Below the pieces are notes generated by a model that made no database searches, had not been told where the DNA came from, and saw only the letters and a list, made by a program, of their open reading frames with translations. DNA of 64,000 nucleotides from the NCBI GenBank assembly GCA_003161635.1, contig PMOA01000148.1, positions 26,144 through 90,143 of the forward strand, written 5' to 3'. This document shows, in pieces, positions 6,608-27,289 of this stretch. The DNA is from Limisphaerales bacterium. Lineage in GTDB: Bacteria > Verrucomicrobiota > Verrucomicrobiia > Limisphaerales > UBA11358. Positions within the stretch are counted from its first letter, which is position 1. Every line of letters begins with the position of its first letter. Both the position numbers and the translations under genes were made by a program.

Positions 6608-7462
6608 ATGATCATTTTGCCCGTTTCCCGGACTTCAGTGCTTGCCAGCGAAGCAAGAGGGAAGGGGTTTACCCTGATAGAACTGCTGGTGGTGATTGCC
6701 ATCATCGCCATCCTGTCGGCGATTTTGTTGCCGGCATTGTCCCAGGCAAAAGGGCGGGCGCAGGCCATCCTGTGCCTGAACAACACCAAGCAGCTCACCC
6801 TGGGGTGGCAACTCTACGCGGACGATTTCGAACGCCGGCTGCCCTACAACCTCGGCATGGTCGGGTCGTCGTTTCGCACCCCGCTCAACTGGGTCAACAA
6901 TGTCATGACCTGGGGGCTTGACCCGGATAATACCAACACCGCCACCCTCACCGAGGCGAGTCTCGGCCCTTTTGTCAGTCAGGCGACGGCCATTTACCGT
7001 TGTCCCTCCGACCACGTCGTCAGCGCGGCCCAAAGCGCCGCCGGCTGGGACAGGCGCATCCGCAGTTATTCAATGAACGCGATGGTTGGCGACGCGGGCG
7101 ACTTTTCCACCAACGGCTTCAACATCAACAACCCTGAATACACGCAGTTCTTTAAAATCACCCAGATTCCGCAGCCGGTGGAAATTTTTGTGTTTCTCGA
7201 CGAGCACCCGGACAGCATCAACGACGGCTATTTTCTGGAACGCGACTATTATCCGGAGTGGCACGACCTGCCCGCTTCCTATCACAACGGCAGCGCCGCG
7301 TTTTCGTTTGCCGATGGACACAGCTCGCTGCATCGCTGGACGCAACCCGACACCTACCGTCCGCCGATTCCGGATGGCGCGAACCTCCCCATTTCTGTTT
7401 CCTCCAGCGGGAACCAGGACCTCGAGTGGGTGCTCGGTCACATGAGCGTGGATCACCACTGA
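6608..7462 (+). CDS. Type II secretion pseudopilin-like protein (prepilin N-terminal methylation motif + DUF1559 / H-X9-DG)
   Basis: [26 protein letters not shown]-terminal [11 protein letters not shown]. Confidence 0.85.
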
Positions 7463-7475
7463 CGACCGGCCGTGC

Positions 7476-8231
7476 TCACAAATACTGTTGCAGTGTTTGT
7501 TCGTCTCCTTCCATCCCCAACACGTACAACGTGTCTCCTTGCGTCCAGGTCACAGTCATGAGTTTGTTGACCTGGACAAACTGGCGCGAACCCATCGGCG
7601 GCGCATTCTTCACCGTGGAACGGTCAATGACGAACAGCCAAAGGTCGCTTTGCTGTCCCGGCGGCAGCGGCTTGCCGGTGTGAAAACAAATCATCGAAAC
7701 TTTTGCGCCCTGCCAGCCTTCAATCGCACAACCGGTCACGGCGGTTTTTTCCAAAGGCGCGGGCAAAACGTAATCCGACGGCGCGTGATTTTGCGCGAGG
7801 TAGGCGCGGACCTGCGCCGGATTATTCGTCGCCAGATCCATGGTGTAGCCGCGCAGCGCGACGCCCGCCATCCGGCTTCGGTAAATGGCGAATGTCTCTT
7901 CATTTCCGCGGTGCTGGAACCAGAGGGGTGCCAGGACAACCAGCGCCGCAACGACCGCCGCCGCCGCCAGAACCGCTCGCTGCCGCCAGAAAATAACTTT
8001 CTCCTGTGCCGCCTGTTCGGAAATGATTTGCTCCTTCAATCCGGCGGGCGCGGTGATTTGCCGGAATCCGGCGCGCAACGTCTCCTGCCGCGCGCAATGC
8101 TCCACCAGCCAGCGCGTCAGTTCCGGATCCTGCCTGGCCAGCTCGAGCGCCCTGGCAATTTGTGGATCATCGGCGTCCGCCGTGCCGGGCCGGTAGAGCA
8201 GTAAAATGGTTTTGGCTTCGTCGCGATTCAC
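7476..8231 (-). CDS. Putative membrane anti-sigma factor
   Basis: GTG start overlaps the sigma stop (GTGA at 8231-8228), suggesting translational coupling. One TM segment (VLAAAAVVAALVVLAPLW) follows an N-terminal cytoplasmic helix region. The upstream part of the track ORF (to 8369) overlaps the sigma gene and is unlikely to be real. Confidence 0.6.
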   Translation of the reverse strand: MNRDEAKTILLLYRPGTADADDPQIARALELARQDPELTRWLVEHCARQETLRAGFRQITAPAGLKEQIISEQAAQEKVIFWRQRAVLAAAAVVAALVVLAPLWFQHRGNEETFAIYRSRMAGVALRGYTMDLATNNPAQVRAYLAQNHAPSDYVLPAPLEKTAVTGCAIEGWQGAKVSMICFHTGKPLPPGQQSDLWLFVIDRSTVKNAPPMGSRQFVQVNKLMTVTWTQGDTLYVLGMEGDEQTLQQYL

Positions 8232-8752
8232 AAGTTTGGTGGTTGGGGTTGCGCGTTGGTGGTGGTGTCCGTCAGCAGTTGGTGCAGCCGTCCGAGGCCG
8301 CGGGTGAGGCGCGATTTGACTGTGCCGAGCGGCACGTCGAGAATTTCGGCAATCTCGTTGTAGGAACAATCCTGCAAGTAAAACAACGCGACGGGCGCCT
8401 GATAAATTTCATCCAGGCGCGCCAGGGCATCGAGCGCCTGTCCGGCGTCGAGGCGGTTGGCGGTGGGCGGCGGCACGACGGGAAGTTCCGCCGCCGCGAA
8501 TTCCAGTTCGATGTGCGGAAAGCGGGTTTGCCTTCGTCGCGCGCCGAGAAACTCGCGGTGCAGGGTGGTGAAGAGCCAGGTTTTCACTTTGGAGGCATCG
8601 CGCAACTGGTGGCCCTTGGCCGCCCAAATGCAAAAAGTTTGTTGTGTAAGGTCACAGGCGTCCGGCTCGTCACGCGCGAGGCTGAGGGCAAATTGATACA
8701 GCGGCTCGTAATAACGAGCCACCAGGCTTTCAAATTCCACGTTGTCAGCCAT
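8228..8752 (-). CDS. ECF-family RNA polymerase sigma factor
   Basis: Region 2 YYEPLYQFALSLARDEPDACDLTQQTF. Region 4 CSYNEIAEILDVPLGTVKSRLTRG. Confidence 0.9.
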   Translation of the reverse strand: MADNVEFESLVARYYEPLYQFALSLARDEPDACDLTQQTFCIWAAKGHQLRDASKVKTWLFTTLHREFLGARRRQTRFPHIELEFAAAELPVVPPPTANRLDAGQALDALARLDEIYQAPVALFYLQDCSYNEIAEILDVPLGTVKSRLTRGLGRLHQLLTDTTTNAQPQPPNL

Positions 8753-8768
8753 GTCAAGTCATCGATAG

Positions 8769-8850
8769 TAAGAGGCTTTAGTGCAACATTTGTTCCCGTG
8801 AAATGCGAACTTAAAATTGCCGGGAACAATATTCGTCTTCATCGCTCTCA
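8769..8850. promoter_or_regulatory. Back-to-back ECF-type promoter pair, GGAAC-N17-CTCT(T/C)A
   Basis: + strand: GGAAC 8823-8827, 17 nt, CTCTCA 8845-8850 (towards 8948). - strand: GGAAC = complement of 8792-8796, 17 nt, CTCTTA = complement of 8769-8774 (towards the sigma ATG at 8752). The same architecture is repeated at 13777-13847. Confidence 0.45.
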
Positions 8851-8947
8851 CTAAACGAAGCGAGCATTGCCGGGTGTTTATGGCAGATAAAACGCAATGG
8901 CATAAACTGTTATCCGTCCGAACCTAGCTGTTAACATATACGAACCT

Positions 8948-11581
8948 ATGAAATTAGAAATCTTCACGTATCAAAAATCATTCATAACCGTCCGGTCACT
9001 TCAAGCAACCAGCCTCGTGAGCGCCGCAGGATGGCTCACACTCCTTTTGTTCGCCGGTCTGGCTGCGCCAGTGGCGACGAAAGCCGCCACGATTTGGAAT
9101 GGCCCGCCCGTCAGCGAGAGCAATGCCACCGAACCGGACAAAATCACGGCCAACGTGTGGCTGACGCGCGGGGGTAGTCAAGGACTCTACAACGCCAAAA
9201 CGGAAGCCGGCTTCACCCATTTTTTCAGCCCGGCGGACACCGAGTGGGCCGACGGGACGACCGCCAACTACGCTTCGCTTTCCTATACGGATTGGAACAC
9301 TTGGTCCAAAAATATTCATGGCGGCCCGCCGAACACGGTCGGCGTGAACGCCGTCGTCCATCTCAAAACGGATGACATTTACATAGACATCACCTTCACT
9401 TCCTGGAGCATTGGCAGCGCGTATTCTTATCAGCGTGCCACTCCACCGGCTGACAACAATCCTCCCACCGTCACCATCACTTCCCCCACTAACGGCGCCT
9501 CCTTCACCTCGCCAGCCAATGTCCCCATCACCGCCAACGCGAACGACTCCGACGGCAGCGTCACGAATGTGGCATTCTTCGACGGGGGCACGTTCCTTGG
9601 CGGGACCAACAACACACCCTACACCGTTACGGCCAGCCTCGCCACCGGCGCCCACGCGCTCACCGCGGTGGCCACGGACAACCTCGGTCTCTCCACCACG
9701 TCCACCGTCGTGAACGTGACGGTCAATATTGGGAACAGGCCACCCAGCGTGACCATCACCAACCCGGCTAATAACGCCACCTTCGGCAACACCGACACTG
9801 TGACCGTCCAGAACTCCGCCAGTGATTCGGATGGCAGCGTGACGAACGTCCAGCTTTTCAACGGGGCCGTGTTGCTGCGCAGTTTTTCCACCGGACCCTA
9901 CAACTTCTCCGGCACCTCAATCTCGGGCAACTTCGCGCTTGGCACAAATACCTTGACCGCGGTAGCCACGGACAACCTCGGCGCCACGACGACCTCGGCG
10001 CCAGTTCATGTGATCATAGCCAGATACCTGCCCCCGATTACGAACGGCAGCATTAACATCCTCCTGCAACCCGTCGCCACCAACCTGGCCGCGCCCGACT
10101 ACGCCATCAGTCCGCCCGGCGACACCAACCGACTATTCGTCGTGGAGCAGAACGGGTTGCTGCGGATCATCCAGAACGGGACCCTGTTGCCCGGGTCGGC
10201 CCTCGACATCCAGAGCCGCGTGGCACCGCCGCTGGTTCCGTCCAACGCCAACGACGAACGCGGCTTCCTCGGACTGGCTTTTCATCCAGGTTTCAACAAC
10301 CCGGCCAGCCCCGGTTATCAAACGCTCTACACCTATAACAGCGAACTGATACCGGCAGGGACGAACCCCACTTACGTGGTGCCAAACGGGGTCACGAACA
10401 ACTACAGGAACGTCGTCAACGAGTGGAAAATCTCGTCCACGAACGCCAATGTCGTTGATCCCGCCTCGCGCCGGGAGGTCATCTCGTTCGGCAAGAATGC
10501 AGCCAATCATAACGGCGGCACATGCACCTTTGGACCGGACGGCTACATGTATCTCGCGTTGGGTGATGGTGGCAACGCCAACGATGTCGGACCGAGCCAC
10601 ATCGTGCCGGGCGGCAACGCCCAGAACTTGAGCACCCCGCTCGGCAAAATGTTGCGCTTTGACCCGCTCAATCCCGCCCTGACGCCGGGCAGCTCCGACC
10701 CGATCAGCACCAACGGACTATATCGCATCCCGACGAGCAACCCGTTCCAGGGGCCGGGCCAGGTGCCGGAGATCTACGCCTACGGTCTGCGCAATCCGTA
10801 TCGGTTTGCCTTCGACCGCGTCACTGGCGACCTGATTGAGGGCGATGTCGGCCAGAACAACGTTGAGGAGATCAATCGCATTGTCCTCGGCGGCAACTTC
10901 GGCTGGGCGGTCAAGGAAGGCGACTTCCTTTTCAACCAAACGAACGGTCCGGCCGGGCCTGCCGGCACCATCGGCACGCCGCCGGGAAATCGCAGCCCGG
11001 GACTTCCGGCGGGCCTGATTGACCCGATTTCCGGCACGTTGGGAACACTGGAATACGACCACAACGAAGGCATCTCCATCACCGGCGGCTTCGTCTATCG
11101 CGGCACCGCGATCCCGGAGCTATACGGCAAGTATATCTTCGGCGACTTGGCCCTGATAACGACGCCGGTGCGGGTGAACGGTCGTCTCTTCTACGCCGAT
11201 CTTCAGACCGGTCAGATCAAGGCGTTTCCATTGTCCCAGTTTGGCGGCTCGGCAATTCTGCCGAATGGCCTTACTGTGCATGGCTTCGGCCAGGACGCCG
11301 ATGGCGAGATTTACGCCTTGGTGACCAACACGTCGGCGAATGGGACCGGCGGAATCGTTTACAAGCTCGTCGCTCTGCGCCTGGCGTTCCAGAGGAACGG
11401 CAATCAGTTGGACATATCCTGGCCCCCCACCGGTGGGCACTTGGAAGCGCAGACCAACAGCCTGAGCGTTGGACTGGGCACGAACTGGGGCACCGTGCCA
11501 GGATCGGCGGCAACCAATCACGTCGTCGTTCCTCTTGACCAGTCCAACGGCAGCGTGTTCTACCGGCTGGCCGTACCGTGA
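8948..11581 (+). CDS. Secreted multidomain protein: N-terminal domain + 2 Ig-like repeats + soluble PQQ-type glucose/sorbosone dehydrogenase (GSDH) beta-propeller + FYRL C-terminal module
   Basis: Signal peptide. Repeats PPTVTITSPTNGASF...DSDGSVTNV and PPSVTITNPANNATF...DSDGSVTNV. GSDH motifs DERGFLGLAFHPGF, HNGGTCTFGPDGYMYLALGDGG, YAYGLRNPYRFAFD and GGFVYRGTAIPELYGKYIFGD. Confidence 0.85.
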   Translation: MKLEIFTYQKSFITVRSLQATSLVSAAGWLTLLLFAGLAAPVATKAATIWNGPPVSESNATEPDKITANVWLTRGGSQGLYNAKTEAGFTHFFSPADTEWADGTTANYASLSYTDWNTWSKNIHGGPPNTVGVNAVVHLKTDDIYIDITFTSWSIGSAYSYQRATPPADNNPPTVTITSPTNGASFTSPANVPITANANDSDGSVTNVAFFDGGTFLGGTNNTPYTVTASLATGAHALTAVATDNLGLSTTSTVVNVTVNIGNRPPSVTITNPANNATFGNTDTVTVQNSASDSDGSVTNVQLFNGAVLLRSFSTGPYNFSGTSISGNFALGTNTLTAVATDNLGATTTSAPVHVIIARYLPPITNGSINILLQPVATNLAAPDYAISPPGDTNRLFVVEQNGLLRIIQNGTLLPGSALDIQSRVAPPLVPSNANDERGFLGLAFHPGFNNPASPGYQTLYTYNSELIPAGTNPTYVVPNGVTNNYRNVVNEWKISSTNANVVDPASRREVISFGKNAANHNGGTCTFGPDGYMYLALGDGGNANDVGPSHIVPGGNAQNLSTPLGKMLRFDPLNPALTPGSSDPISTNGLYRIPTSNPFQGPGQVPEIYAYGLRNPYRFAFDRVTGDLIEGDVGQNNVEEINRIVLGGNFGWAVKEGDFLFNQTNGPAGPAGTIGTPPGNRSPGLPAGLIDPISGTLGTLEYDHNEGISITGGFVYRGTAIPELYGKYIFGDLALITTPVRVNGRLFYADLQTGQIKAFPLSQFGGSAILPNGLTVHGFGQDADGEIYALVTNTSANGTGGIVYKLVALRLAFQRNGNQLDISWPPTGGHLEAQTNSLSVGLGTNWGTVPGSAATNHVVVPLDQSNGSVFYRLAVP

Positions 11582-11595
11582 TTGATGACCATTCG

Positions 11596-11976
11596 CCACG
11601 GCCGCCGCGCTCAACGTCAACGTCACCACGCTCGATTATCCGATTTACGAATATGGCCACGGTTCCGCCGGCATCGCCATCATCGGCGGCTGCGTTTATC
11701 GTGGCACGAACTACACCGAACCTGGCCGGGCAGTATGTCTTCGGCGACTTCAACACCAGCTTCGGCGTGCCTGACGGGCAGATTTATTACCTGGCATAAA
11801 TGCGCCCCGGGATTTGGGAGCGTTTTTCGTTCCAGCTCTGGCCAACTGGCGGCCGCTTGGTGCGCTTCATCAAGGGATTCGGCGAGGACGAAGCAGGGGA
11901 AATCTATCTATTAAGCTCAACCATACTTGGTCCCACAGGACGGACAGGTGACGTCCGCCGGCTCACGCCGCCGTGA
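11596..11976 (+). pseudogene. C-terminal fragment of a second GSDH paralogue (frameshift near 11726, in-frame TAA 11797-11799)
   Basis: YEYGHGSAGIAIIGGCVYRGTNYTE / LAGQYVFGDFNTSFGVPDGQIYYLA* / MRPGIWERF...GFGEDEAGEIYLLS parallels the end of the 8948 gene (ISITGGFVYRGTAIPELYGKYIFGD...GFGQDADGEIYALV). Confidence 0.55.
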
Positions 11977-12023
11977 TGCTTACGGAAACCCGCAAACAGA
12001 AAAAAAAACAGAAAAACAAAACT

Positions 12024-13267
12024 ATGAAAAATAATTTAATAGCACCGCTCGAAACCAAAACAACTGCCGCGATCCAGATTGAAATCCGCCGCCGCAAATG
12101 CGCGCGGCTGCTGATTCCACTTCTGGCGTGTGTCATTCTCGGAACGCCGGCCAAAACGGCAGCGCAAACATTCGCCACGTATCCCGCAGGCGACGATGTC
12201 ACTCCTTCACTCGGCCAATTTCAAATTGTGCTCGATCAGGCATGGGTCAAGATTTTTGACGTCATCATACCCAACAGCCCGCTGGGAAGCGTATTGTCAA
12301 CCAAGCACATAAAGCTCTACCACAACGGGGTCATCACCAGTCCCACACTTTACGATCCGAATACCTTGATTGGCCGGTGGATTACGCCGGAACGCTAACA
12401 GGTCAAGCGCCAGGCCGCACCTATGTCAACGAAAGCCAGTTGGTCGTTCATCCCACCTGGCCAGGCCCGACCGGCGGAGCGCGTGAAATTCACACTTTTC
12501 TCAAATCCATTCACATGGTTGATTCATTAACCACGCGCGTGGGATTTTCGGTCAAGGCCGGGATGCAGGCCCCGACCCGGCCCGTGAGCGCCGGCCAGGT
12601 CGAAGGCGGCAGCGTGCAGGACGACTTTCCCGCCAATAGTTTCTTCAACGTTTAGGTAGTGGTGGATCTCCCGGCCGGCGGTTCCCTGCCGGCCATTCAA
12701 CTGGTTAACGTGGATCCGCTCCTCGTCCAGCAGACCAACATTTCTTTGTTCCCGCCGCATGTTGTCTATCAGCACGAAAATTCCACCGCCGTGTCGGTGT
12801 ATTTCAACAACGACTGCATCATCCACGACCCGACGACCGGCGCGGACATTCCGGTTGTGCGGGGAACGCTTTTCGGCCAGTTAACCCTGGCCGGCCACGG
12901 GATCAGCTTCAGTTCCGTCGAAGTGGAGTCGTTCCAGGCGGAGTTCGAAAATGAAAGCGCCACGAACACGATGCCGCTCAACACCGCGCCGATCACCAAC
13001 AGCACCATTGTGGACTTTTCGCCGGATTACAACGCGGCCCCATGCTCGCTGTCCGGCGGTCATTTCGTCTCCAATGGATCGTTTATTTTCACGATCAATT
13101 ACCTGACTCCCAACACCACCAACTACCTGCAAGTAAGCACCGACCTTGGTTCCGGGAGTTGGCAAACCATCGCGACGATCATTCCCACGACGAACAGTTT
13201 CACCTTCGTGGACCCCGACGCCATGAACAACCCGCAAAGGTTTTACCGCCTCTCGTTGGCACCGTGA
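12024..13267 (+). pseudogene. Disrupted secreted protein with FYRL C-terminal module (frameshift 12377-12398, in-frame TAG 12653-12655)
   Basis: Three consecutive track ORFs (11973.., 12377.., 12659..) read through as one protein. Signal peptide MKNNLIAPLE...LLIPLLACVILGTPAKTAAQ. Ends NPQRFYRLSLAP. Confidence 0.55.
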
Positions 13268-13377
13268 AGCTCAATACTGATTTCAAAAACCAGAAAAACA
13301 ATCAAACAACATGTATTAGACCTGAAGTGTTGGGAACAAATGTCGTCCCCGCGCCTTTAAACACGAGGCAAACATCT

Positions 13378-13584
13378 ATGGCCTTTTTCATGAAAAATAT
13401 TTTATCGGTCATCGCCATGGCAGTTGTGCTGTGCCTTGGCTCTGTGCCTTCCAGCCTTGGTACCACGGCCAACTGGGTTACGCTTGTCACCAACACGGCG
13501 GCGAGCAATCCGGTCGTCTTCGTGGACAATCACGCGACGAACGGCTCTGGCTTTTACCGTGTCGGGCGGCTGCCCAATCCATGA
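13378..13584 (+). pseudogene. Remnant ORF: a signal peptide joined to the last ~38 aa of the FYRV module
   Basis: MAFFMKNILSVIAMAVVLCLG...NWVTLVTNTAASNPVVFVDNHATNGSGFYRVGRLPNP is near-identical to the C-terminus of the 13969 gene. Confidence 0.4.
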
Positions 13585-13616
13585 CGGGTTGCAGAGGAAA
13601 CTTTGAATATGCGGTC

Positions 13617-13760
13617 GTGGCCCTTGGCCGCCCAAATGCAAAAAGTTTCTTGTGTAAGGTCACAGGCGTCTGCTTCGTCCCGCGCGAGACTGTAGGCAAA
13701 TTGGAACAGCGGCTCGTAATAACAAGGCACCAACTGCTCAAAATCCGGGCCTTCAGCCAT
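13617..13760 (-). pseudogene. 5' fragment (about 48 codons) of a duplicated ECF sigma gene
   Basis: MAEGPDFEQLVPCYYEPLFQFAYSLARDEADACDLTQETFCIWAAKGH aligns with the first 48 aa of 8228..8752. DNA 13617-13847 parallels 8609-8850. Homology stops abruptly at 13617. Confidence 0.7.
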
Positions 13761-13776
13761 ATCGCAACATTGAAGT

Positions 13777-13847
13777 TAAGAGCCCGCAGAACGTCAATTG
13801 TTCCCGCAAAAAATCACCGGGAACAATTGTTCTCCCGGTTCATCTTA
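13777..13847. promoter_or_regulatory. Second back-to-back ECF-type promoter pair
   Basis: + strand: GGAAC 13820-13824, 17 nt, ATCTTA 13842-13847 (towards the 13969 operon). - strand: GGAAC = complement of 13800-13804, 17 nt, CTCTTA = complement of 13777-13782. Confidence 0.45.
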
Positions 13848-13968
13848 CCTGCAAGTGGGAGTGGCATTTTCACTCAAAACGTTTTCGGCGGTCACAGTTG
13901 GCGCCCTGCCATTAGGTTTCGCCAATTTTTCCGGCCAGAAACAGACGGAACAAACTTGATGAACCATT

Positions 13969-14838
13969 ATGAATGTGATGCGTAATTTATTCAAAGTAAT
14001 GCTCTTGAGCGCGGCCCTGGCGGTTTTCGGCTGCTCCCTCACCGGGTTGGCGCGGACCGTCTCCGTCGGTGTTGCGAACGGCAATGTGCTGTCGTTTTTT
14101 CCGGCCACCACCAACATTGCCACCGGCGATTCGGTGCTTTGGACCTGGAATTCCACCGGGATCACCCCGCATTCAACAACGAGTGATACCAATGGACTGT
14201 GGGATTCGACGTCTGTTCCGGCACCACACACTTTCACCCAGACGTTCACTTCCGCAGGCACTTTTCCCTATCATTGCACCATCCATGTCAGCTTGGGCAT
14301 GAAAGGCACCATCATTGTGGCCGCCGCAAATCTGCCGCCGGCCGTCACCATCACCAATCCCGTGTCCGGCAATGTCTTCACCGCGCCGGCCAACGTGACC
14401 ATCCAAGCCTCGGCCTCGGACACGGACGGCACGGTCACCAACGTGCAATTTCGCGTGGGCACAAACGTGGTGGCCAACAAGGCCACCGCCCCCTTCTTCG
14501 GCGTCACCAACAATCTGGCCGCGGGCGGCTATACTCTTTTTGCCATCGCCTCGGATAACAGCGGCGCCACCGCCACCAACCAGGTCGCGATCAGCGTCGT
14601 CACTCCGGTGTCGGTGCTGCTCAGTGCGCCGCAGCCGGTGCCGCCCACGAAGTTCAGGTTCAGTTACACGGCGAATGCCGGGCTGAGTTACATCGTCCAA
14701 CGTTCCACCAATCTGCTTTCGCCCAATTGGACCACCCTCGTCACCAATACGGCAGGAAGCAGCCCGGTGACTTTCACGGACATAAACGCGACGGTCAATC
14801 CGGGATTCTATCGTGTTGGACGCCTGCCGAATCCGTGA
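13969..14838 (+). CDS. Type-1 (blue) copper cupredoxin domain + Ig-like repeat + FYRV C-terminal module
   Basis: Cu ligand pattern TPHS...FPYHCTIHVSLGMKG (H...C-x2-H-x4-M). Ig-like LPPAVTITNPVSGNVF...DTDGTVTNV. Signal with possible lipobox AVFGC. Confidence 0.85.
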   Translation: MNVMRNLFKVMLLSAALAVFGCSLTGLARTVSVGVANGNVLSFFPATTNIATGDSVLWTWNSTGITPHSTTSDTNGLWDSTSVPAPHTFTQTFTSAGTFPYHCTIHVSLGMKGTIIVAAANLPPAVTITNPVSGNVFTAPANVTIQASASDTDGTVTNVQFRVGTNVVANKATAPFFGVTNNLAAGGYTLFAIASDNSGATATNQVAISVVTPVSVLLSAPQPVPPTKFRFSYTANAGLSYIVQRSTNLLSPNWTTLVTNTAGSSPVTFTDINATVNPGFYRVGRLPNP

Positions 14839-14906
14839 TTCGTTGCTTTGTCACAAGCGGACGTTGGGGGTGACTGGTCGGAAACGGGCAATCATGGCTA
14901 AAAAAT

Positions 14907-15827
14907 ATGAGGCTGCGGGGATTATTCGTCAGCGCATTGTCGTTCGGTTTGTTGACGCTGATTTTGTCCGGTGCAAAATCCGCCGGATCTTTTCCACCAT
15001 CCGGCGGAGGGGCAACGAACGTGCGGATGTTCCCGGCCAAGGGAGTGGTAAAGGAACTCAACCCGGACAACAAAACGGTTGTTATCAGCCACGAAGCCAT
15101 TTCCAATTACATGGCGGCCATGACCATGCCGTTCAAGGTGAAAGACCCAAAAGAACTGGCCGGCCTGCACCGCGGCGATGAAATTTCATTCCGACTCCAG
15201 GTCACTGAAACGGAGAGTTGGGTGGAGCACATCGCCAAAATCGGGACCGTATCCCTGCCCCCAATTCAAACCCCGACCAATCCACCGGTCGTCCGACCGA
15301 ATCATCCGCTCCTGGATTACAAGTTCACCAATGAACTGGACCAGGCGGTGAGCTTGAACGATTTTCGCGGTCAGGCGCTGGCCATCACATTTTTTTACAC
15401 CCGCTGCCCGCTGCCCGATTATTGCCCGCGGCTGTCGAAAAATTTTCAGGCGGCATCGCAGAAACTCGGTTCCCTGCCCGGCGCTCCCGCCAACTGGCAT
15501 TTCCTTTCAATTTCCTTCGACACGGAATTTGACACGCCGAACATGCTCAAAGCCTACGGCAATAGTTATCAATACGATCCGAAACATTGGAGTTTTCTGA
15601 CCGGGCCACCGGACAAAATCGGCGAACTCGCCCGGCAATCAGGCGCCAGCTATGAACTCGACGCCGGCACTTTCAACCACAATTTTCGCACGCTCATCGT
15701 TGACGCCAGTGGTCATCTGCAGATGGTTTTTCCAACTGGCGGGGATCTTTCAGACGAAATTGTTGCCGAAATCATCAAGGCCGCCGCCGTAACGAATCAA
15801 CCGGATGCACAAAGTCAAAACCATTGA
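14907..15827 (+). CDS. CusF-like copper-binding domain fused to an SCO1/SenC thioredoxin-fold copper chaperone
   Basis: GVVKELNPDNKTVVISHEAISNYMAAMTMPFKV (CusF-type M-x-M). FFYTRCPLPDYCP...WHFLSISFD...NHNFRTLIVD (SCO family). Confidence 0.85.
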   Translation: MRLRGLFVSALSFGLLTLILSGAKSAGSFPPSGGGATNVRMFPAKGVVKELNPDNKTVVISHEAISNYMAAMTMPFKVKDPKELAGLHRGDEISFRLQVTETESWVEHIAKIGTVSLPPIQTPTNPPVVRPNHPLLDYKFTNELDQAVSLNDFRGQALAITFFYTRCPLPDYCPRLSKNFQAASQKLGSLPGAPANWHFLSISFDTEFDTPNMLKAYGNSYQYDPKHWSFLTGPPDKIGELARQSGASYELDAGTFNHNFRTLIVDASGHLQMVFPTGGDLSDEIVAEIIKAAAVTNQPDAQSQNH

Positions 15828-16615
15828 AACTAAAGCGAATATTGGCCGTAACGATGGCGCTTGGCGCCGCCGGCGGCGCGGCGGTCTGTTTGATTTCGTG
15901 TTCCACCACACCGGACGCCGTGGTCGTGCCGCTGGAAATTCCCGGCGCACATTTCGTCGGCAACAAGGCCTGCCTGGATTGTCACGCCGACATCGTCCGC
16001 AAATTTCCCGCCAGCCCGCATGCGCGGGTCCATTTTGAAAATGCGGCCAGGGTCGGCGAAACCGGCTGCGAATCCTGCCACGGTCCCGGCAGCAAGCACA
16101 TCGAAGCCGGCGGCGCAAAATTATTCATCATCAATCCCGGCCCGGACCCGTCATCCTGTTTTCAATGTCATCTCGACGTTCACGCTGAATTTAGCCTGCC
16201 GCAGCATCATCAGGTCATCGAAGGCCACCTGAGTTGCGTGCAATGTCACGATCCCCACGGCGGCGACATCTTCAAGCCAAAAGGCGGGCTGGCCATGGCC
16301 CGACAGGACGAAAGCTGCGCGCAATGTCATCGCGACCAGACACGGCCCTTTGTTTTCGAGCACGCGGCGTTGCGCGAAGGTTGCACGACCTGCCATAACC
16401 CGCACGGTTCGATCAACCAGAAAATGCTCGTGGCGAGCGACCCCAATCTTTGCCTGCGTTGCCACGCCCAGGTCCAGGGCCCGAGCGTCCCCAATGGAAG
16501 CATTTACATCGGGAATACGGACCATACCCGGCTTTTGCGAATCGGCACGTGCTGGACGGCTGGATGCCACACGGCCATTCACGGTTCCAACGTGGATCCC
16601 CGGCTCAGGTATTGA
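15824..16615 (+). CDS. Multihaem c-type cytochrome lipoprotein (7 CxxCH + 1 Cx4CH)
   Basis: CLDCH, CESCH, CFQCH, CVQCH, CAQCH, CTTCH, CLRCH and CWTAGCH. Lipobox LISCS. CTTCHNPHGS...LCLRCH resembles the paired-CXXCH motif. 4-nt overlap with the upstream gene. Confidence 0.9.
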   Translation: MKLKRILAVTMALGAAGGAAVCLISCSTTPDAVVVPLEIPGAHFVGNKACLDCHADIVRKFPASPHARVHFENAARVGETGCESCHGPGSKHIEAGGAKLFIINPGPDPSSCFQCHLDVHAEFSLPQHHQVIEGHLSCVQCHDPHGGDIFKPKGGLAMARQDESCAQCHRDQTRPFVFEHAALREGCTTCHNPHGSINQKMLVASDPNLCLRCHAQVQGPSVPNGSIYIGNTDHTRLLRIGTCWTAGCHTAIHGSNVDPRLRY

Positions 16616-16635
16616 ACGCGCGGTCAAAGCATGGC

Positions 16636-18999
16636 ATGAAAGTCTCCCCGCCAAACGAATTCAAGCCGCGCATCCTGGCTTTTCTTCTGTGTTTGACCGG
16701 TTGCCTGTCATCCTCCGCCGACGAGCCCCAACCCGAACCGCTACCGCCACTTCCGCCACCCGCCAGCGGGCAGATTGATTTCGACCGCGACATCAAACCC
16801 ATTCTGGATGCGTCCTGCCTGCGTTGTCACGGGCCGGAAAAGCCGAAGAGCCATTTCCGCCTCGACAACCGCGAGTCGGCGCTCAAGGGCGGTAACAACA
16901 ACACCAATGACATCATTCCCGGCGAGAGCAACCGGAGCAAATTGATCGCCTATGTAGCCGGGTTGGACAAGGACATCCAAATGCCGCCGCCCGACCATGG
17001 ACCATCGCTCACGCCCCAACAAATCGGCCTCCTGTGGGCGTGGATTGATCAAGGCGCAAATTGGAACACCACCAATCAAGCTTCACCTCTCCGGCTCAAT
17101 TTTGAACCGACCTTTCGCTGGATTGGGGTTCAGGGCGACAAATCCAAATTCCGGGAACTCGAGGGCATGAAAGAGGGTTTTGCGGGCGGAGTCACGGACG
17201 CTTTGTTCAGCCAGCAAACCGGTCCCAACGAAAAATTTTTACTGGAGGGACATTTTATTGTTCCCGACCAGGATTTCCGGTTGAAACTGGCGCTGGATGA
17301 AACGGACCGGGGTTTTGTCCATGCCGGTTTCGAGGAATGGCGCAAGTATTACACTGATACCGGCGGATACGATCCCGCCGTGGCCCCGCCGGAGTTCAAT
17401 TTCAACCGCGATTTGTACGTGGACAACGGGCGGATCTGGGTGGATCTGGGCCTCACCCTGCCGCGCTGGCCGCAAATCGTGCTGGGTTACGAATATCAAT
17501 TCAAACAAGGCAACAAGTCCATGCTGGATTGGGGCCAGGCGAACAGGGAGAATGTCAATATTGTCCCGTCCATCAAGGCGATTGATGAACACACGCATAT
17601 CATCAAACTCGACGTGACGCACGATTTCGACGGCTGGCACCTGGAGGACAATGCCCGCGTCGAGTTTTACTACGAAAAAAACCGCAGTGATGAAACCAAC
17701 GCCTTCCAGGCCGCGGGCACCACCGAGACGCGGGACAAGTATAATCACGTGCAGGGCATGAACACGTTGACGCTGGAAAAACAAATCCGCGATTGGTGGT
17801 ATTTGTCCGGCGGCGGTTACTATTCCAAACTCGAAGGCACCGACTTTTTCAATCAAACCAACGGCGCATTCGGCCTTTCCTGGAACAGCCAGGAAATCAC
17901 GCTCCGGCGCGAATCGGAAATTTTCAGCCTGACCAGCCTCTTCACGCCGCTGGCCGGTCTCAGCTTTTCGGTGGGCACCCAAAACGAATGGACGCACGAG
18001 GAGGGCTTCGGCAACGCGCCCAATCTCGAATTTCTCATTACCAATGCATTCGAAAATGCCAACCTGGACACATTCAAGTCCATGCAAAAAGCGAACCTTC
18101 GTTTTACGAAAATTCCCTTCACGGTCCTTTTTGCCGACACCCGGTTCGAACAGGAAAGCATCGAAGAATCTCAATCGCAGGCCCCGGCCGGCGCCCTGAC
18201 CCGCCAGACCGACGCCACGAATTACCGCTACAATCTTCGCGGCGGTTTCAACACCTCGCCCTGGCGCTGGTCGTCCTTGAACGCGGAATACCGGTGGAAA
18301 TCCAGCGACACCGACTACAACCATTCCCGGGACGTATGGGGCAGCGGTCTCGGCACTCCGACCAACGGATACCCGGCCTTCATTCTCGGGCGCACCATTC
18401 ATGGCGGCGAGTTTGAAACGAAACTCGCCCTGCGGCCCGCAAACTGGCTCAAAACCACGTTGACCTACCAGATTGCCAGCACGGATTATTCAACGCGGAC
18501 CGACCCGGCCGTGGACGCGGCCACGCTTGCTCCGGTTTCTCCCGGGGGAACGATTCTGGCTGGAAAATATGACGCCCAGACTTTCGGGTTCAGCGCCACG
18601 CTCACGCCCGTCCGGCGATTTTATTTTTACAGCGCCTTCACTTACAGCCTGTCCCGTCTGACGACGGCCAGCCACGGCGATCCGTCCGTTGTCCCTTACA
18701 GCGGCAACGTCTATACCATCATCACCATCGCCAGTTACGCTTTGAACCCGAAAACCGGCCTGCAGGCCACCTACAACTTCTCGCGTGGTGATTACGGGCA
18801 GCATAACACCGCCGGCGTGCCCCTCGGAATTGATTTTACCCACCAGCAACTGCTGGTCGGCCTGACCCGGCGGTTCAGCGACCGGGTATCCGCTTCCCTG
18901 CGCTACGGATTTTCCCAATACTCGGAACCAAGCAGCAACAACCTGAACAATTTCACCTCGCACGGGATTTTCGCCACCCTCAGTTACAAATGGCCGTGA
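16636..18999 (+). CDS. Lipoprotein: PSCyt1-type monohaem cytochrome c domain fused to a ~650-aa probable outer-membrane beta-barrel
   Basis: Start MKVSPPNEFKPRILAFLLCLTGC (lipobox). The track ORF from 16450 overlaps the upstream gene. DIKPILDASCLRCHGPEKPKSHFRLDNRESALKGG...LLWAWIDQGANW is PSCyt1-like. The remainder is rich in alternating aromatic/polar strands with Y/G/N/T turns, and ends in the OMP-like terminus GIFATLSYKWP. Confidence 0.7.
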   Translation: MKVSPPNEFKPRILAFLLCLTGCLSSSADEPQPEPLPPLPPPASGQIDFDRDIKPILDASCLRCHGPEKPKSHFRLDNRESALKGGNNNTNDIIPGESNRSKLIAYVAGLDKDIQMPPPDHGPSLTPQQIGLLWAWIDQGANWNTTNQASPLRLNFEPTFRWIGVQGDKSKFRELEGMKEGFAGGVTDALFSQQTGPNEKFLLEGHFIVPDQDFRLKLALDETDRGFVHAGFEEWRKYYTDTGGYDPAVAPPEFNFNRDLYVDNGRIWVDLGLTLPRWPQIVLGYEYQFKQGNKSMLDWGQANRENVNIVPSIKAIDEHTHIIKLDVTHDFDGWHLEDNARVEFYYEKNRSDETNAFQAAGTTETRDKYNHVQGMNTLTLEKQIRDWWYLSGGGYYSKLEGTDFFNQTNGAFGLSWNSQEITLRRESEIFSLTSLFTPLAGLSFSVGTQNEWTHEEGFGNAPNLEFLITNAFENANLDTFKSMQKANLRFTKIPFTVLFADTRFEQESIEESQSQAPAGALTRQTDATNYRYNLRGGFNTSPWRWSSLNAEYRWKSSDTDYNHSRDVWGSGLGTPTNGYPAFILGRTIHGGEFETKLALRPANWLKTTLTYQIASTDYSTRTDPAVDAATLAPVSPGGTILAGKYDAQTFGFSATLTPVRRFYFYSAFTYSLSRLTTASHGDPSVVPYSGNVYTIITIASYALNPKTGLQATYNFSRGDYGQHNTAGVPLGIDFTHQQLLVGLTRRFSDRVSASLRYGFSQYSEPSSNNLNNFTSHGIFATLSYKWP

Positions 19000-19805
19000 C
19001 TGCGTGTCGCTTCCCACGTCAATCGCAAACCTTCCAACGTCAGATTCGGTTCAACGGCTGAAATCTCCGGCAGTTTGGACCCAATCAGCTTCGCGTAACC
19101 GCCTGTGGCGACAACCGGCAGATGTTTTGTTTTCAACTCGCGCTTCAGCTCGCCAATCAATTCACGAACCAGCCCACGATAGCCATGCACCGCGCCGACC
19201 AGCATCGCTTCCTCGGTGCTTTTGCCGATGCTCGTCTTGATTTCGTGGATTTTGATGCGCGGCAGCAATGCCGTTTTCTCGTGCAAATAATCCGTCATCG
19301 CCGCCAGCCCCGGCGCGATGATGCCGCCGACATAGTTGCCGGCGCGATTGATCACATCGAACGTGACGGCGGTGCCGAAATCCAGCACTACCACCGGCGC
19401 GCCAAAGTGATGTCGCGCGGCAACCGCATTGGCCAGGCGATCCGGACCGATGGTGTCCGGCTTCGGATAATCAATCCCCACGCCGCATACAGTTTTCGGC
19501 GTCAATTCAAGCATCGGAACGCCGGGCACCGTCCCGGCATGTTGCTGAATTTGCTTTCGAGCCGAGCCGGTGCTCGGCGCTCCAAGTTGGGCGATGAATT
19601 CCCGGACAAACGGCGTCGCACGCGGGACGACGCTGCAAAGCGCCACACCGTCAAGCCGGGCGCGGCCAACGAATTTTCGCACCAGCTTCGCCGCCGCACC
19701 GTTGAACCAGTTCGCCGTGGGAATGTCGGTCTGCTTCACGACCCGCCGGTTGTTCGCCAGACCGGCGTGCGTGTTCGTGTTGCCGATGTCAAAAAGCAAA
19801 AGCAT
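18984..19805 (-). CDS. coaX: Type III pantothenate kinase
   Basis: MLLLFDIGNTNTH, IGPDRLANAVAA, VLDFGTAVTFD, GGYAKLI. The upstream ORF extension (to 19871) is translation of a hairpin repeat. Confidence 0.85.
   Translation of the reverse strand: MLLLFDIGNTNTHAGLANNRRVVKQTDIPTANWFNGAAAKLVRKFVGRARLDGVALCSVVPRATPFVREFIAQLGAPSTGSARKQIQQHAGTVPGVPMLELTPKTVCGVGIDYPKPDTIGPDRLANAVAARHHFGAPVVVLDFGTAVTFDVINRAGNYVGGIIAPGLAAMTDYLHEKTALLPRIKIHEIKTSIGKSTEEAMLVGAVHGYRGLVRELIGELKRELKTKHLPVVATGGYAKLIGSKLPEISAVEPNLTLEGLRLTWEATRSHGHL
19527..19583. repeat. Probable in-frame palindromic insertion in coaX
   Basis: Hairpins gccgggcaccgtcccggc and gagccgagccggtgctcggcgctc encode GAPSTGSARKQIQQHAGTVPG. The segment is about 19 aa longer than in T. 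maritima CoaX as I recall it. Confidence 0.4.
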
Positions 19806-25784: not shown

Positions 25785-27289
25785 TTGGCAGTCAGGGATT
25801 TTTCCACGCGTTCCACGATATTCACGCCCGACACAATCGTGTCGCCCAGCGAAACGCCGTCGCGATAGTGGCCGGCAAAGAAAAGGCCCGCGACCTTGTT
25901 TTCGATTTTGTTCATCAATTCGCGGTAACGACCGTAGCCGACGTTGTATTGCGGAATCGCCTTAGGATAAAGCACGCAGTGCTCGAAGGTCGTTTTGCCG
26001 GTCACGCCCAGCAGCACACGCAGGTCTTCACACACCAGCGCGACAAGTTTCTCCGCCGGCAGCAAGGCAAGTTCCGGATAACGCTCGCCGCCGATGTAAC
26101 TTGTCAGCGTCAAATGACCTGTCGGCGCGCGATTGGGGAACAGCGACGACGAGAAAATCGTGCCGAGAATTTTAAAGCCTTCGATTTTGGGAATCAACAT
26201 GCCGAAGCCTTCGCACGGATGCGCCACATCCTCGCGGCGAAATCCCAGCACCACGCTCGCCACCGGCGGATGACGGATTTCGGAAAATGGCGAGAGGTCG
26301 AGCGGCTCAAGTTCTTTATCCTCGGTAGGGCGGTGCTGCTGCGCCGCCCCCATTTCAAGGCTGCGCGGCAGCGCAGCCCTACCACACATCACTTTCAACT
26401 CCGCCAGCCTGAACGCCGTGCCGCAATAAATCACCGCGCTGTGTTCTACTCGCGTTTCCCGGAGGGACGATCTCTGCGAGTCCCCAACTTCACCCGCCGT
26501 GAGTGGGGCTCGTGGAACTCGCCCCTCCGAAAGCGTGAGAGTCCAACCGGCAGCGGTCTGCGTCAGCTTTGTAACTGGGGTGTTTAGCCTCACCGCGTCG
26601 CCAAGTCGCGCCGCCAGCGTATCCGGCAGAACTTGCAAACCTTCATCAAACGAAAATTTTGGCGCATGATCCTTGGCCACTTCACCGCTCCGCTTCCGCG
26701 CACCCGCACCGAAAATCTGGCCTTTGATCAGTGAGCCGTAATTGTCCTCCAGCGCCTTGAGCTTGGGAAAAGCGTGCGTCAAGGAAAGCCGGTGCGGATC
26801 GCCCGCGTAAATTCCGGCCACAAGCGCGTCAATGGCTTGATCGAGAAATTCCTGGTTCAGCCGGCGCACAACGAATTGCGCGATACTTTCCTCGACGCCA
26901 TCGCGGCGGCGCGGCACAAACGGTTCGCGCAACACGGCCAGCTTGGCTTTGGCGGTGAAAAGTTTCGTCGTGAAAAAACCGAGTGGCGAACCCGGCATCG
27001 CCATGGGGCGTTTGTAGCGGACAACATACCGCGCCTCCGCTTTCGGATCGGGATTGAGCCGACGCGTTTCCAGGCCTGCGTCGCGGACGAGTTGGGCGAT
27101 TTTCGGCGATGTTTCGAGAATCGTGTTCGGCCCGAACTCGGCGAGATAACCGTCCTGGCGCAGCGACTGAATCACGCCACCCACGCGCCCGCCCGCTTCA
27201 TAAACCGTGACCGGGATGCCTTTGCGTTTCAGATAAAACGCGGCGGTCAACCCCGTGATGCCGGCCCCGATGATGGCGACGGGTTTCAT
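25781..27289 (-). CDS. hemY: FAD-dependent protoporphyrinogen/coproporphyrinogen III oxidase (HemY/CgoX type) with in-frame repeat insertions
   Basis: MKPVAIIGAGITGLTAAFYLKRKG (dinucleotide fold). C-terminal LFFAGHYRDGVSLGD. 4-nt overlap with hemH. Confidence 0.85.
   Translation of the reverse strand: MKPVAIIGAGITGLTAAFYLKRKGIPVTVYEAGGRVGGVIQSLRQDGYLAEFGPNTILETSPKIAQLVRDAGLETRRLNPDPKAEARYVVRYKRPMAMPGSPLGFFTTKLFTAKAKLAVLREPFVPRRRDGVEESIAQFVVRRLNQEFLDQAIDALVAGIYAGDPHRLSLTHAFPKLKALEDNYGSLIKGQIFGAGARKRSGEVAKDHAPKFSFDEGLQVLPDTLAARLGDAVRLNTPVTKLTQTAAGWTLTLSEGRVPRAPLTAGEVGDSQRSSLRETRVEHSAVIYCGTAFRLAELKVMCGRAALPRSLEMGAAQQHRPTEDKELEPLDLSPFSEIRHPPVASVVLGFRREDVAHPCEGFGMLIPKIEGFKILGTIFSSSLFPNRAPTGHLTLTSYIGGERYPELALLPAEKLVALVCEDLRVLLGVTGKTTFEHCVLYPKAIPQYNVGYGRYRELMNKIENKVAGLFFAGHYRDGVSLGDTIVSGVNIVERVEKSLTAK
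26324..26383. repeat. 60-nt REPIN-like doublet in frame in hemY
   Basis: ggtagggcggtgctgctgcgccgcc (26324-26348) / ggctgcgcggcagcgcagccctacc (26359-26383). Encodes CGRAALPRSLEMGAAQQHRPT. Confidence 0.65.
26461..26533. repeat. REPIN doublet of the 'GGGGCTCGTGGAACTCGCCCCTCC' family in frame in hemY
   Basis: 26505-26533 is an exact 29-mer, also present at 28499-28527 and as the reverse complement at 27867-27895. The degenerate partner arm is at 26461-26485. Encodes SEGRVPRAPLTAGEVGDSQRSSLRE. Confidence 0.8.

Follow-up and report, generated by a model that had tools for sequence, protein, structure and literature searches.

A most likely MtrAB-type, copper-linked conduit operon behind a conserved ECF-type promoter in a soil Verrucomicrobium

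In a stretch of 64,000 nucleotides from Limisphaerales bacterium (assembly GCA_003161635.1, contig PMOA01000148.1, forward-strand positions 26,144 to 90,143; hereafter the window), four co-directional genes, which we call g1 to g4, follow a promoter of the extracytoplasmic function (ECF) type. Most likely, they make up a copper-linked conduit operon of the MtrAB type in this soil Verrucomicrobium. An initial annotation, made from the nucleotide sequence and its open reading frames (ORFs), had proposed a candidate outer-membrane electron conduit, and this proposal is now supported by the homology of g3 to MtrA, by the predicted MtrB-like fold of g4 and by the synteny of the genes among related genomes. 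That g1–g4 include a porin–cytochrome conduit is, in our opinion, very probable. The explanation as a whole, in which all four genes encode a trans-outer-membrane conduit of the MtrAB type, is the one that we favour, albeit with considerably more reserve. As for the direction of electron flow, the arguments given below leave an inward route evenly poised.

The four genes are as tightly packed as was first described (Table 1). The gap between g1 and g2 is 68 nt, the stop codon of g2 overlaps the TTG start of g3 by 4 nt (the junction reads ATTGA), and 20 nt separate g3 from g4. The TTG start agrees with homologues of g3 in which an ATG or GTG start codon stands at this residue. Scans for sigma-70 promoters and terminators within the operon gave weak consensus matches only, in about the number expected by chance, and no Rfam match to a riboswitch or other RNA element was found in the 122-nt leader, the search covering positions 7000–19500. 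Profile searches upheld the domain calls made earlier for all four products (Copper-bind, CusF_Ec, SCO1-SenC, Paired_CXXCH_1 and PSCyt1).

The cytochrome–barrel pair and its copper partners

The product of g3 matches Paired_CXXCH_1 (8.4e-22) and carries seven CxxCH motifs plus one Cx4CH motif (CWTAGCH), that is, eight haem sites and not ten, which agrees with the original count. Matches to two decahaem families stay below their cut-offs: DmsE (TIGR03508; 3e-45, 154.7 bits against 192.2) and GSU2203 (NF041028; 2e-48, 165.3 bits against 325). At the same time, g3 aligns with MtrA of the solved Mtr complex (6r2q_A) with an E-value of 5.3e-25, residues 47–256 corresponding to MtrA residues 133–324. 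Such an alignment indicates that g3 is a true, but shortened, MtrA homologue. The cysteine following the hydrophobic core of its signal peptide (L-[INVL]-S-C-S-T) is invariant in all 38 homologues inspected; judging from this conservation, g3 is very probably a lipoprotein, as the initial annotation had it. The window contains no other multihaem ORF (at least three CxxCH motifs).

In g4, the profile search placed PSCyt1 at residues 61–120 (1.8e-13), in line with the Planctomycete-type monohaem domain recognised earlier at the N-terminus, and assigned no family to the other ~650 residues. Residues C61, C64, H65 and the M116-P-P motif are invariant in 28 homologues, from which a His/Met-ligated haem can be deduced. 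The protein is not an ordinary PSCyt protein of the DUF1549/DUF1553 type, an identity that the initial annotation had named as contradicting its proposal: the profile search detected no DUF1549, DUF1553 or PSD1 domain. On the other hand, g4 had also been called a lipoprotein, and this call probably does not hold. Its LTGC lipobox is not conserved, most homologues having a signal-peptidase-I type ...SAA/E site, and g4 is thus probably not a lipoprotein.

The fold of the remaining part of g4 was approached with AlphaFold2. A first model, built from 28 close homologues only, was unusable (predicted local distance difference test score, pLDDT, of 53.9; Foldseek template modelling score, TM, of ~0.2). 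Once 54 distant relatives, retrieved with the homologue from locus L051 as query, had been added, the model, now from a 102-sequence alignment, reached a pLDDT of 86.8 and a predicted TM of 0.79. It comprises a helical N-terminal domain (residues ~49–139/140), a linker of ~12 residues and 26 long antiparallel strands spanning residues 153–786. The top match in the PDB, as found by Foldseek, was MtrB (6r2q_B; E-value 1.8e-14, TM 0.70 normalised to MtrB, root-mean-square deviation, rmsd, 6.9 Å). The next matches were 22-strand TonB-dependent transporters, including the copper transporter OprC, with TM of at most 0.47. A TonB-dependent transporter was ruled out as an identity for g4 by the strand count of 26 and not 22, by the missing plug and by these much lower TM scores. 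Thus, the C-terminal ~635 residues are predicted to form an MtrB-like outer-membrane barrel, and the barrel suggested in the initial annotation, as opposed to a soluble or other non-barrel fold, is what the model returns.

Two genes upstream of this pair encode copper proteins. The g1 product matches Copper-bind (PF00127; 2.9e-9, 37.7 bits against a cut-off of 21.2) and Big_7, and belongs to the plastocyanin/azurin family of cupredoxins. Its H, C, H and M ligands lie in the ...PHS... and HCTIHVSLGM motifs (H...C-x2-H-x4-M), so that the type-1 cupredoxin first proposed is confirmed at the level of family and ligands. All four ligands are found in 29 of 35 relatives, while the other six show C-x2-H without the methionine. 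Variant relatives of g1 are the cupredoxin genes of L020 and L015, as well as those of L010, L021, L024, L032, L033 and L041: some g1 relatives have two tandem cupredoxin domains, and in a subset the loop is shortened to C-x2-H-G-F and lacks the axial methionine, the loss of which is expected to shift the potential of the copper site. The FGC lipobox of g1 did not stand up to comparison, since it is not conserved across homologues.

At its C-terminus, g1 carries a domain of ~75 residues that ends in GFYRVGRLPNP (general pattern [FY][FY]R[VLI]x(2-8)-COOH) and has no match in Pfam or NCBIfam. In the window, this domain occurs in the cupredoxin (14590–14838) and in three other ORFs (11380–11581, 13060–13267 and 13379–13584), among which are the 877-aa and 202-aa proteins of an inserted segment described below. 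Elsewhere, it was found in L008, L029, L035, L041 and L044, and in related Verrucomicrobiota it closes unrelated, large secreted proteins, including two of 1070 and 2389 aa. The domain may serve as a tag, specific to the lineage, for sorting or anchoring.

The g2 product is a fusion of a CusF-like and an SCO1/SenC domain, as was initially read, with both families above their cut-offs: CusF_Ec (PF11604) at 1.2e-17 and 63.9 bits against 27, and SCO1-SenC (PF02630) at 1.7e-14 and 54.3 bits against 22.8. A weak AhpC/TSA match was seen as well (E-value 0.002). The Cu(I) motif of the CusF domain (H..M.AMTMPF) is conserved. The cysteine motif of the Sco domain is a conserved variant, C-x5-C (CPLPDYCP) and not CxxxC, and the distal histidine (HNFRT) is conserved too. 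Among 36 homologues, the ligand residues of g2 (CusF H/M-x-M, Sco C-x5-C and Sco His) reach at least 95% conservation.

Related loci and known conduits

One scan of species-representative genomes gave 52 loci, of which 51 encode a barrel fused to the cytochrome domain (the fused type) and one, L051, encodes a barrel without it. All come from uncultured metagenome-assembled genomes (MAGs), nearly all labelled Verrucomicrobiota, with soil, peat and lakes as sources. Homologues of g3 and g4 are adjacent in 52 of the 52 loci, the multihaem cytochrome (MHC) gene lying immediately upstream of the barrel gene. CusF-Sco is present in 37 loci and the cupredoxin domain in 35; most of the 17 loci without a cupredoxin domain have a truncated upstream contig, apparent frameshifts or a partial g1 copy only. 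An ECF sigma gene was called in ~35 loci, in most of them divergent from the operon, and is followed by a putative anti-sigma gene in ~34. The usual order is anti-sigma and sigma (leftward), then cupredoxin, CusF-Sco, MHC and barrel (rightward), and the initial annotation's idea of a conserved neighbourhood holds for the cytochrome–barrel pair throughout, for the copper genes in roughly two thirds of the loci and for the sigma/anti-sigma pair in most. Rearranged loci also exist. L045 has its MHC, barrel, sigma and anti-sigma genes all in one direction, and in L042 and L044 the cupredoxin gene lies downstream of the barrel gene, still beside the MHC–barrel pair. L035, L044, L048 and L049 lack g1 and/or g2 while keeping sigma, promoter, MHC and barrel.

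With 761 clusters at 50% identity at an E-value of at most 0.001 and 209 at an E-value of at most 1e-30, the barrel belongs to a large family; a separate search with the full g4 protein returned more than 2,000 matches. Nine loci bear taxon labels from outside the main group (L004, L014, L017, L019, L023, L024, L030, L033 and L037), among which are Bifidobacteriaceae, Methylomirabilota, Limnocylindrales, Acidiferrales, Sulfopaludibacter and Methylacidimicrobium. Since most of these loci share the conserved flanking genes, their labels probably reflect errors of binning or labelling and not horizontal transfer.

The barrel homologue of L051, which comes from a lake MAG, recovers as a query a subfamily of barrel-only proteins of 640–730 aa, 28–35% identical to g4. 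Their clusters encode a histidine kinase, a sigma-54 response regulator, a large MHC, an eight-haem MHC and the barrel; the large MHC has 841–887 aa and faint matches to MtrC/MtrF domains. In the cluster of L051, there are additional MHCs and also an NrfD-like membrane protein. In contrast, no other protein with at least three CxxCH motifs was found within ~10 kb in any of the 51 fused-type loci. Such a contrast suggests that the large MHC was swapped for the cupredoxin and CusF-Sco in the fused type. Three features therefore change together between the two types: the fusion of PSCyt1 to the barrel, the replacement of a large, presumably extracellular MHC by cupredoxin and CusF-Sco, and the replacement of two-component/sigma-54 control by ECF control. 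Against the NCBIfam GSU2204 family ('CXXCH-containing (seleno)protein'), the g4 barrel gave no match, while some barrel-only relatives gave a weak one (E-value 2e-6, 27 bits against a cut-off of 350). In two barrel-only loci, L053 (10174–16536) and L054, the two MHC genes and the barrel gene have FeoAB, a TonB-dependent receptor and three radical-SAM/SPASM genes behind them; these neighbours hint at a link of the cluster to iron acquisition or to peptide/cofactor maturation.

Among characterised systems, the closest parallels to weigh are the MtrAB, MtoAB and PioAB conduits of Shewanella, Sideroxydans and Rhodopseudomonas (6R2Q). Here, too, the gene of an MtrA-family cytochrome lies directly upstream of that of a 26-strand barrel. 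As in MtoAB and PioAB, an extracellular MtrC is missing, and the Mto cluster includes a monohaem class-I cytochrome, MtoD, a proposed periplasmic relay. Unlike in those systems, g3 has eight haems instead of ten and is very probably a lipoprotein, the barrel of g4 has no detectable sequence similarity to theirs and is fused to a monohaem domain of the PSCyt1 family, and genes for a cupredoxin and a CusF-Sco fusion belong to the operon, which is under the control of an ECF sigma. The initial annotation had also invoked Cyc2, which is encoded with rusticyanin in the rus operon of Acidithiobacillus and resembles g4 in having an N-terminal single-CxxCH domain fused to a barrel, with a cupredoxin in the operon. 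Cyc2, however, has ~400–550 aa and a barrel of ~16 strands that encloses its own haem, and it works without a multihaem partner. In the case of g4, there are 26 strands, 787 aa and a gene for an MtrA-type partner that is always adjacent. Of the two architectures proposed at the outset, it is therefore that of MtrAB, with an added haem domain, that fits, and not that of Cyc2.

By gene content, g1 and g2 can also be likened to Slit_1812–1818 of Sideroxydans lithotrophicus ES-1, where cupredoxin-domain proteins, SCO1/SenC and a cytochrome are encoded together and are induced along with MtoA on solid magnetite (PMC12016527). These genes differ from ours in lying apart from mtoAB, in that two of the cupredoxin proteins are multicopper oxidases, and in having neither a CusF fusion nor known ECF control (PMC12016527).

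Within the same phylum, He et al. (2017) described a 'novel porin' beside a periplasmic eight-haem cytochrome in six Verrucomicrobia MAGs from Trout Bog, some of these clusters also having an extracellular MHC (PMC5615132). Fiorito et al. (2026) described the clusters EET3 and EET4, with an extracellular nonahaem MHC, an octahaem MtrA-like MHC of the DmsE family (seven CxxCH and one Cx4CH) and an MtrB-like porin that compares with 6r2q_B at a TM of 0.68 and an rmsd of 6.9 Å (bioRxiv 10.64898/2026.05.27.727921). With these clusters, g3 shares the 7+1 motif pattern and the DmsE-family match, and the Foldseek statistics of the EET3/EET4 porin and of g4 against 6r2q_B are nearly identical (TM 0.68–0.70, rmsd 6.9 Å). 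Unlike in the published clusters, no extracellular nonahaem or large MHC is found in the fused-type loci. Our barrel-only relatives show the weak matches to NF041027 and TIGR03016 that the preprint gives for its porins, and the porin–MHC clusters of both reports almost certainly correspond to the barrel-only branch. Their accessible text makes no mention of a cupredoxin or Sco gene in the clusters, or of a haem domain fused to the porin (PMC5615132; bioRxiv 10.64898/2026.05.27.727921), and that of the preprint makes none of a sigma factor. In the literature that we could consult, PSCyt1 and a porin come together only in He et al. (2017), in whose accessible part PSCyt domains form a separate topic (PMC5615132). 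Some of the homologues listed there, e.g., that of Ca. Udaeobacter, may be of the fused type and have gone unnoticed. The initial annotation knew of no description of the whole combination. This has to be narrowed, as the octahaem-plus-porin core was already known in Verrucomicrobia; what does appear both undescribed and widespread is the form with a haem-fused porin, a copper partner with its chaperone, no extracellular MHC and ECF control.

Promoter, sigma factor and a local duplication

The GGAAC-N17-ATCTTA promoter reported upstream of g1 is present, and its standing is strengthened by comparison. Counted over the 41 loci with a locatable divergent sigma gene, the motif GGAAC-N17-xTCTxA is conserved upstream of the operon in 30 and upstream of the sigma gene in 32, against a chance expectation of ~0.005 matches per intergenic region. 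Conservation on both sides of the intergenic region is the hallmark of an ECF sigma that regulates its own gene and has a single target operon, the mirror promoter being the sigma's own autoregulatory promoter in the relatives. In the whole window, five matches to the motif were found where 0.34 would be expected, and four of the five lie within two copies of the promoter region.

The initial annotation had placed an ECF sigma gene next to the operon. The adjacent ORF, however, is a 68-aa remnant, and it is 5 kb upstream that an intact ECF sigma gene is found. Its product has regions 2 and 4 and exceeds the TIGR02937 cut-off (63 bits against 42.9). The GTG start of the following anti-sigma-like gene overlaps the sigma stop codon (GTGA), an arrangement of translational coupling; the only family match of this protein is a sub-threshold one to DUF3379. 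Directly beyond it lies a gene for a DUF1559/prepilin-type N-terminal-methylation protein, which holds the same position in ~32 loci.

The two promoter copies belong to a 195-nt direct repeat (8609–8803 and 13617–13811; 78% identical, 5008 nt apart) that covers the 5' end of the sigma gene and the promoter pair. The ~4.8 kb between the copies (inserted segment ~8775–13616) is not present in the closest relative, L003. As a result of this duplication and of the inserted segment, the intact sigma gene has become separated from its target operon, and the plus-strand motif of promoter copy A (8823–8850) now faces a new gene. This inserted gene encodes an 877-aa secreted protein with an N-terminal 'WNGP...VWLTR' domain, two Big_7 immunoglobulin (Ig) domains, a beta-propeller like that of glucose/sorbosone (pyrroloquinoline quinone type) dehydrogenases (PF07995, 4.2e-27) and the FYRL version of the C-terminal domain. 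Its N-terminal domain recurs in proteins that fill the cupredoxin slot of L017, L045 and L047. The segment also holds a mini-ORF, in which a signal peptide is joined straight to the FYRVGRLPNP domain; at the DNA level, it shares 70% identity with the cupredoxin gene of L003 at the 3' end of the latter. The mini-ORF is probably a decayed duplicate of g1 left behind by the rearrangement.

Table 1. Positions of the operon, its control elements and neighbouring features in the window
Feature	Position	Strand	Length	Description
g1	13969-14838	+	289 aa	Secreted type-1 cupredoxin with Big_7 Ig domain and ~75-aa C-terminal domain
g2	14907-15827	+	306 aa	CusF-like Cu(I) domain fused to SCO1/SenC thioredoxin-fold domain
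g3	15824-16615	+	263 aa	Octahaem cytochrome of the MtrA/DmsE family, TTG start; putative lipoprotein (LISC/STT)
g4	16636-18999	+	787 aa	Signal peptide, Pro-rich linker, PSCyt1 monohaem domain, predicted 26-strand MtrB-like barrel
Operon ECF-type promoter	13820-13847	+		GGAAC-N17-ATCTTA, exact motif
Mirror ECF-type promoter	13777-13804	-		GGAAC-N17-CTCTTA; here faces the sigma remnant only
Sigma remnant	13554-13760	-	68 aa	5' end of ECF sigma gene, duplicated copy; probable pseudogene
Intact ECF sigma	8228-8752	-	174 aa	Sigma70_r2 and r4_2; TIGR02937
Anti-sigma-like protein	7476-8231	-	251 aa	Single-pass, counted from GTG; weak DUF3379 match
Copy A of bidirectional ECF promoter pair	8769-8850			Minus-strand motif 8769-8796 serves the sigma gene
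Gene in inserted segment	8948-11581	+	877 aa	Secreted protein
Mini-ORF	13379-13584	+	68 codons	Signal peptide and C-terminal domain
Gene beyond the anti-sigma gene	6608-7462	+	284 aa	DUF1559/prepilin-type protein

Electron flow, competing explanations and significance

The scenario that we favour can be put as follows. A signal at the envelope would free the ECF sigma, and g1–g4 would be transcribed as a single unit. The g4 protein would assemble in the outer membrane, and g3 would thread its lumen, as MtrA does in MtrB, to give an eight-haem wire. As the N-terminus of an even-stranded barrel is periplasmic, the PSCyt1 haem would sit at the periplasmic mouth and could relay electrons between the wire and a soluble partner; for MtoAB, the separate monohaem protein MtoD has been proposed as an equivalent relay. 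With its CusF domain, g2 would capture Cu(I) and, through its Sco domain, load the copper site of g1, which would act as a mobile or terminal copper redox partner. In the inward version of the scenario, extracellular Fe(II), Fe(II) minerals or reduced humic substances would be oxidised and the electrons passed on to a terminal oxidase. Inward flow is favoured by the absence of an MtrC-like protein, as in MtoAB and PioAB, together with the fact that both accessory carriers are of high-potential types (His/Met haem and type-1 copper), and by the induction in Sideroxydans of the cupredoxins, SCO1/SenC and the cytochrome along with MtoA. We infer, then, the g3–g4 complex, the position of PSCyt1, the delivery of copper from g2 to g1, the location of g1 and the direction of flow.

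Several points weigh against this scenario. The barrel of g4 gave no match to Pfam PF11854, the MtrB/PioB family, at an E-value of up to 0.1, and family profiles built from 28 and from 102 homologues found no MtrB chain in the PDB at an E-value of up to 10; the relationship of g4 to MtrB is hence a structural one, drawn from the predicted fold. Much of the synteny lies within a vertically inherited neighbourhood (LeuRS ... CoaX-BirA-NadC), which inflates it, so that part of the conservation reflects relatedness and not functional coupling. For the direction of flow, the argument comes solely from carrier type and the missing MtrC-like protein, and the lineage-wide C-terminal domain of g1 may send this protein to the cell surface, which would change the picture. 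Furthermore, ECF control is, to our knowledge, unusual for respiratory conduits. Finally, for the barrel-only relatives in the same phylum, both reports propose, without experiments, the reduction of humics or peat organic matter (PMC5615132; bioRxiv 10.64898/2026.05.27.727921).

In the opposite reading, electrons enter from the periplasm via PSCyt1 and leave the cell through copper, a surface-displayed g1 replacing the MtrC-type decahaem as terminal reductase for extracellular acceptors of high potential, such as Mn(III/IV), Fe(III) chelates or oxidised humic and phenolic radicals. Besides the outward extracellular electron transfer proposed in the literature for related Verrucomicrobial clusters, this reading draws on the fact that g1 holds in the fused type the genomic slot that the large MtrC/F-like MHC holds in barrel-only clusters. 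The Big_7 spacers of g1 (one here and more in some relatives) and its FYRVGRLPNP domain, common to unrelated secreted proteins, also point to the surface, and the cupredoxins of Sideroxydans ES-1 are predicted to be extracellular (PMC12016527). Yet the C-terminal domain of g1, besides matching no Pfam or NCBIfam family, has no known secretion route or function, and the copper chaperone g2, whether periplasmic or membrane-anchored, agrees no less well with a client protein in the periplasm. Energetics speak against an outward flow, too: to acceptors of low potential, humics and Fe(III) oxides among them, a type-1 copper centre donates electrons poorly, and electrons would have to move uphill from a periplasmic His/Met haem to bis-His haems of low potential. 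All in all, we consider outward flow ending in copper rather unlikely. It is similarly tempting, but still unlikely in our estimate, to suppose that a g1 exported to the surface by its C-terminal domain docks on g3/g4 in the place of the MtrC-type decahaem, giving a wire of eight haems with electron exchange at type-1 copper. In this design, PSCyt1 would be the built-in periplasmic port for entry and exit, and an envelope signal would bring the device into play via the ECF sigma.

A different possibility is that the operon serves not energy metabolism but an ECF-controlled defence of the envelope against copper or redox stress. Periplasmic Cu(I) would then be buffered or oxidised by CusF-Sco and the cupredoxin, or these would repair envelope proteins that had been oxidised, with the conduit disposing of or supplying electrons. 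The dedicated sigma/anti-sigma pair with its conserved promoter is in keeping with such a role, as are the two products out of four that handle copper and the membership of Sco among thioredoxin-fold thiol-disulfide proteins, which the weak AhpC/TSA match of g2 recalls. What remains invariant across loci, however, is the MHC–barrel pair: it is g1 and/or g2 that the four reduced loci named above have dropped, while sigma and promoter were kept. The unit includes no efflux pump, multicopper oxidase or CopA-type gene, and we know of no copper defence system with an MtrAB-type conduit. We therefore think a stress function quite improbable. Least of all do we expect g4 to be a solute channel and g3 an assimilatory metal reductase, acting, e.g., on Fe(III) or Cu(II) for uptake, with no wire across the membrane. 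This is suggested by FeoAB and the TonB-dependent receptor adjoining the barrel-only relative L053, and by the TonB-dependent transporters, OprC included, among the lower structural matches of g4. But MtrB is clearly the best structural match, with 26 strands rather than 22, neither a plug domain nor a TonB box was detected in g4, g3 is an MtrA homologue, and the 51 fused-type loci contain no uptake genes. Such a channel is thus very improbable indeed.

If a conduit of the MtrAB type is what g1–g4 encode, it would widen the known design space of Mtr-type systems by a porin with its own haem relay, by copper in place of a multihaem terminus and by ECF control where respiratory regulation is usual. 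Should the copper protein in fact stand at the outer end of the haem wire, the operon would provide the first case of an Mtr-type conduit that ends outside the cell in such a protein. The contrast between the fused type and the barrel-only type, with its MtrC-like cytochrome and sigma-54 control, offers a natural comparison for what sets the direction of a conduit and the choice of its partners. Verrucomicrobiota are among the most abundant bacteria of soil and peat, and their respiratory options are poorly known; the fused-type device appears to be common in those of them that live in such habitats. If its role is to oxidise Fe(II) or reduced humics, or to reduce acceptors of high potential through a copper protein, it would be an unrecognised player in the redox cycling of iron, humic substances and carbon at oxic–anoxic interfaces.

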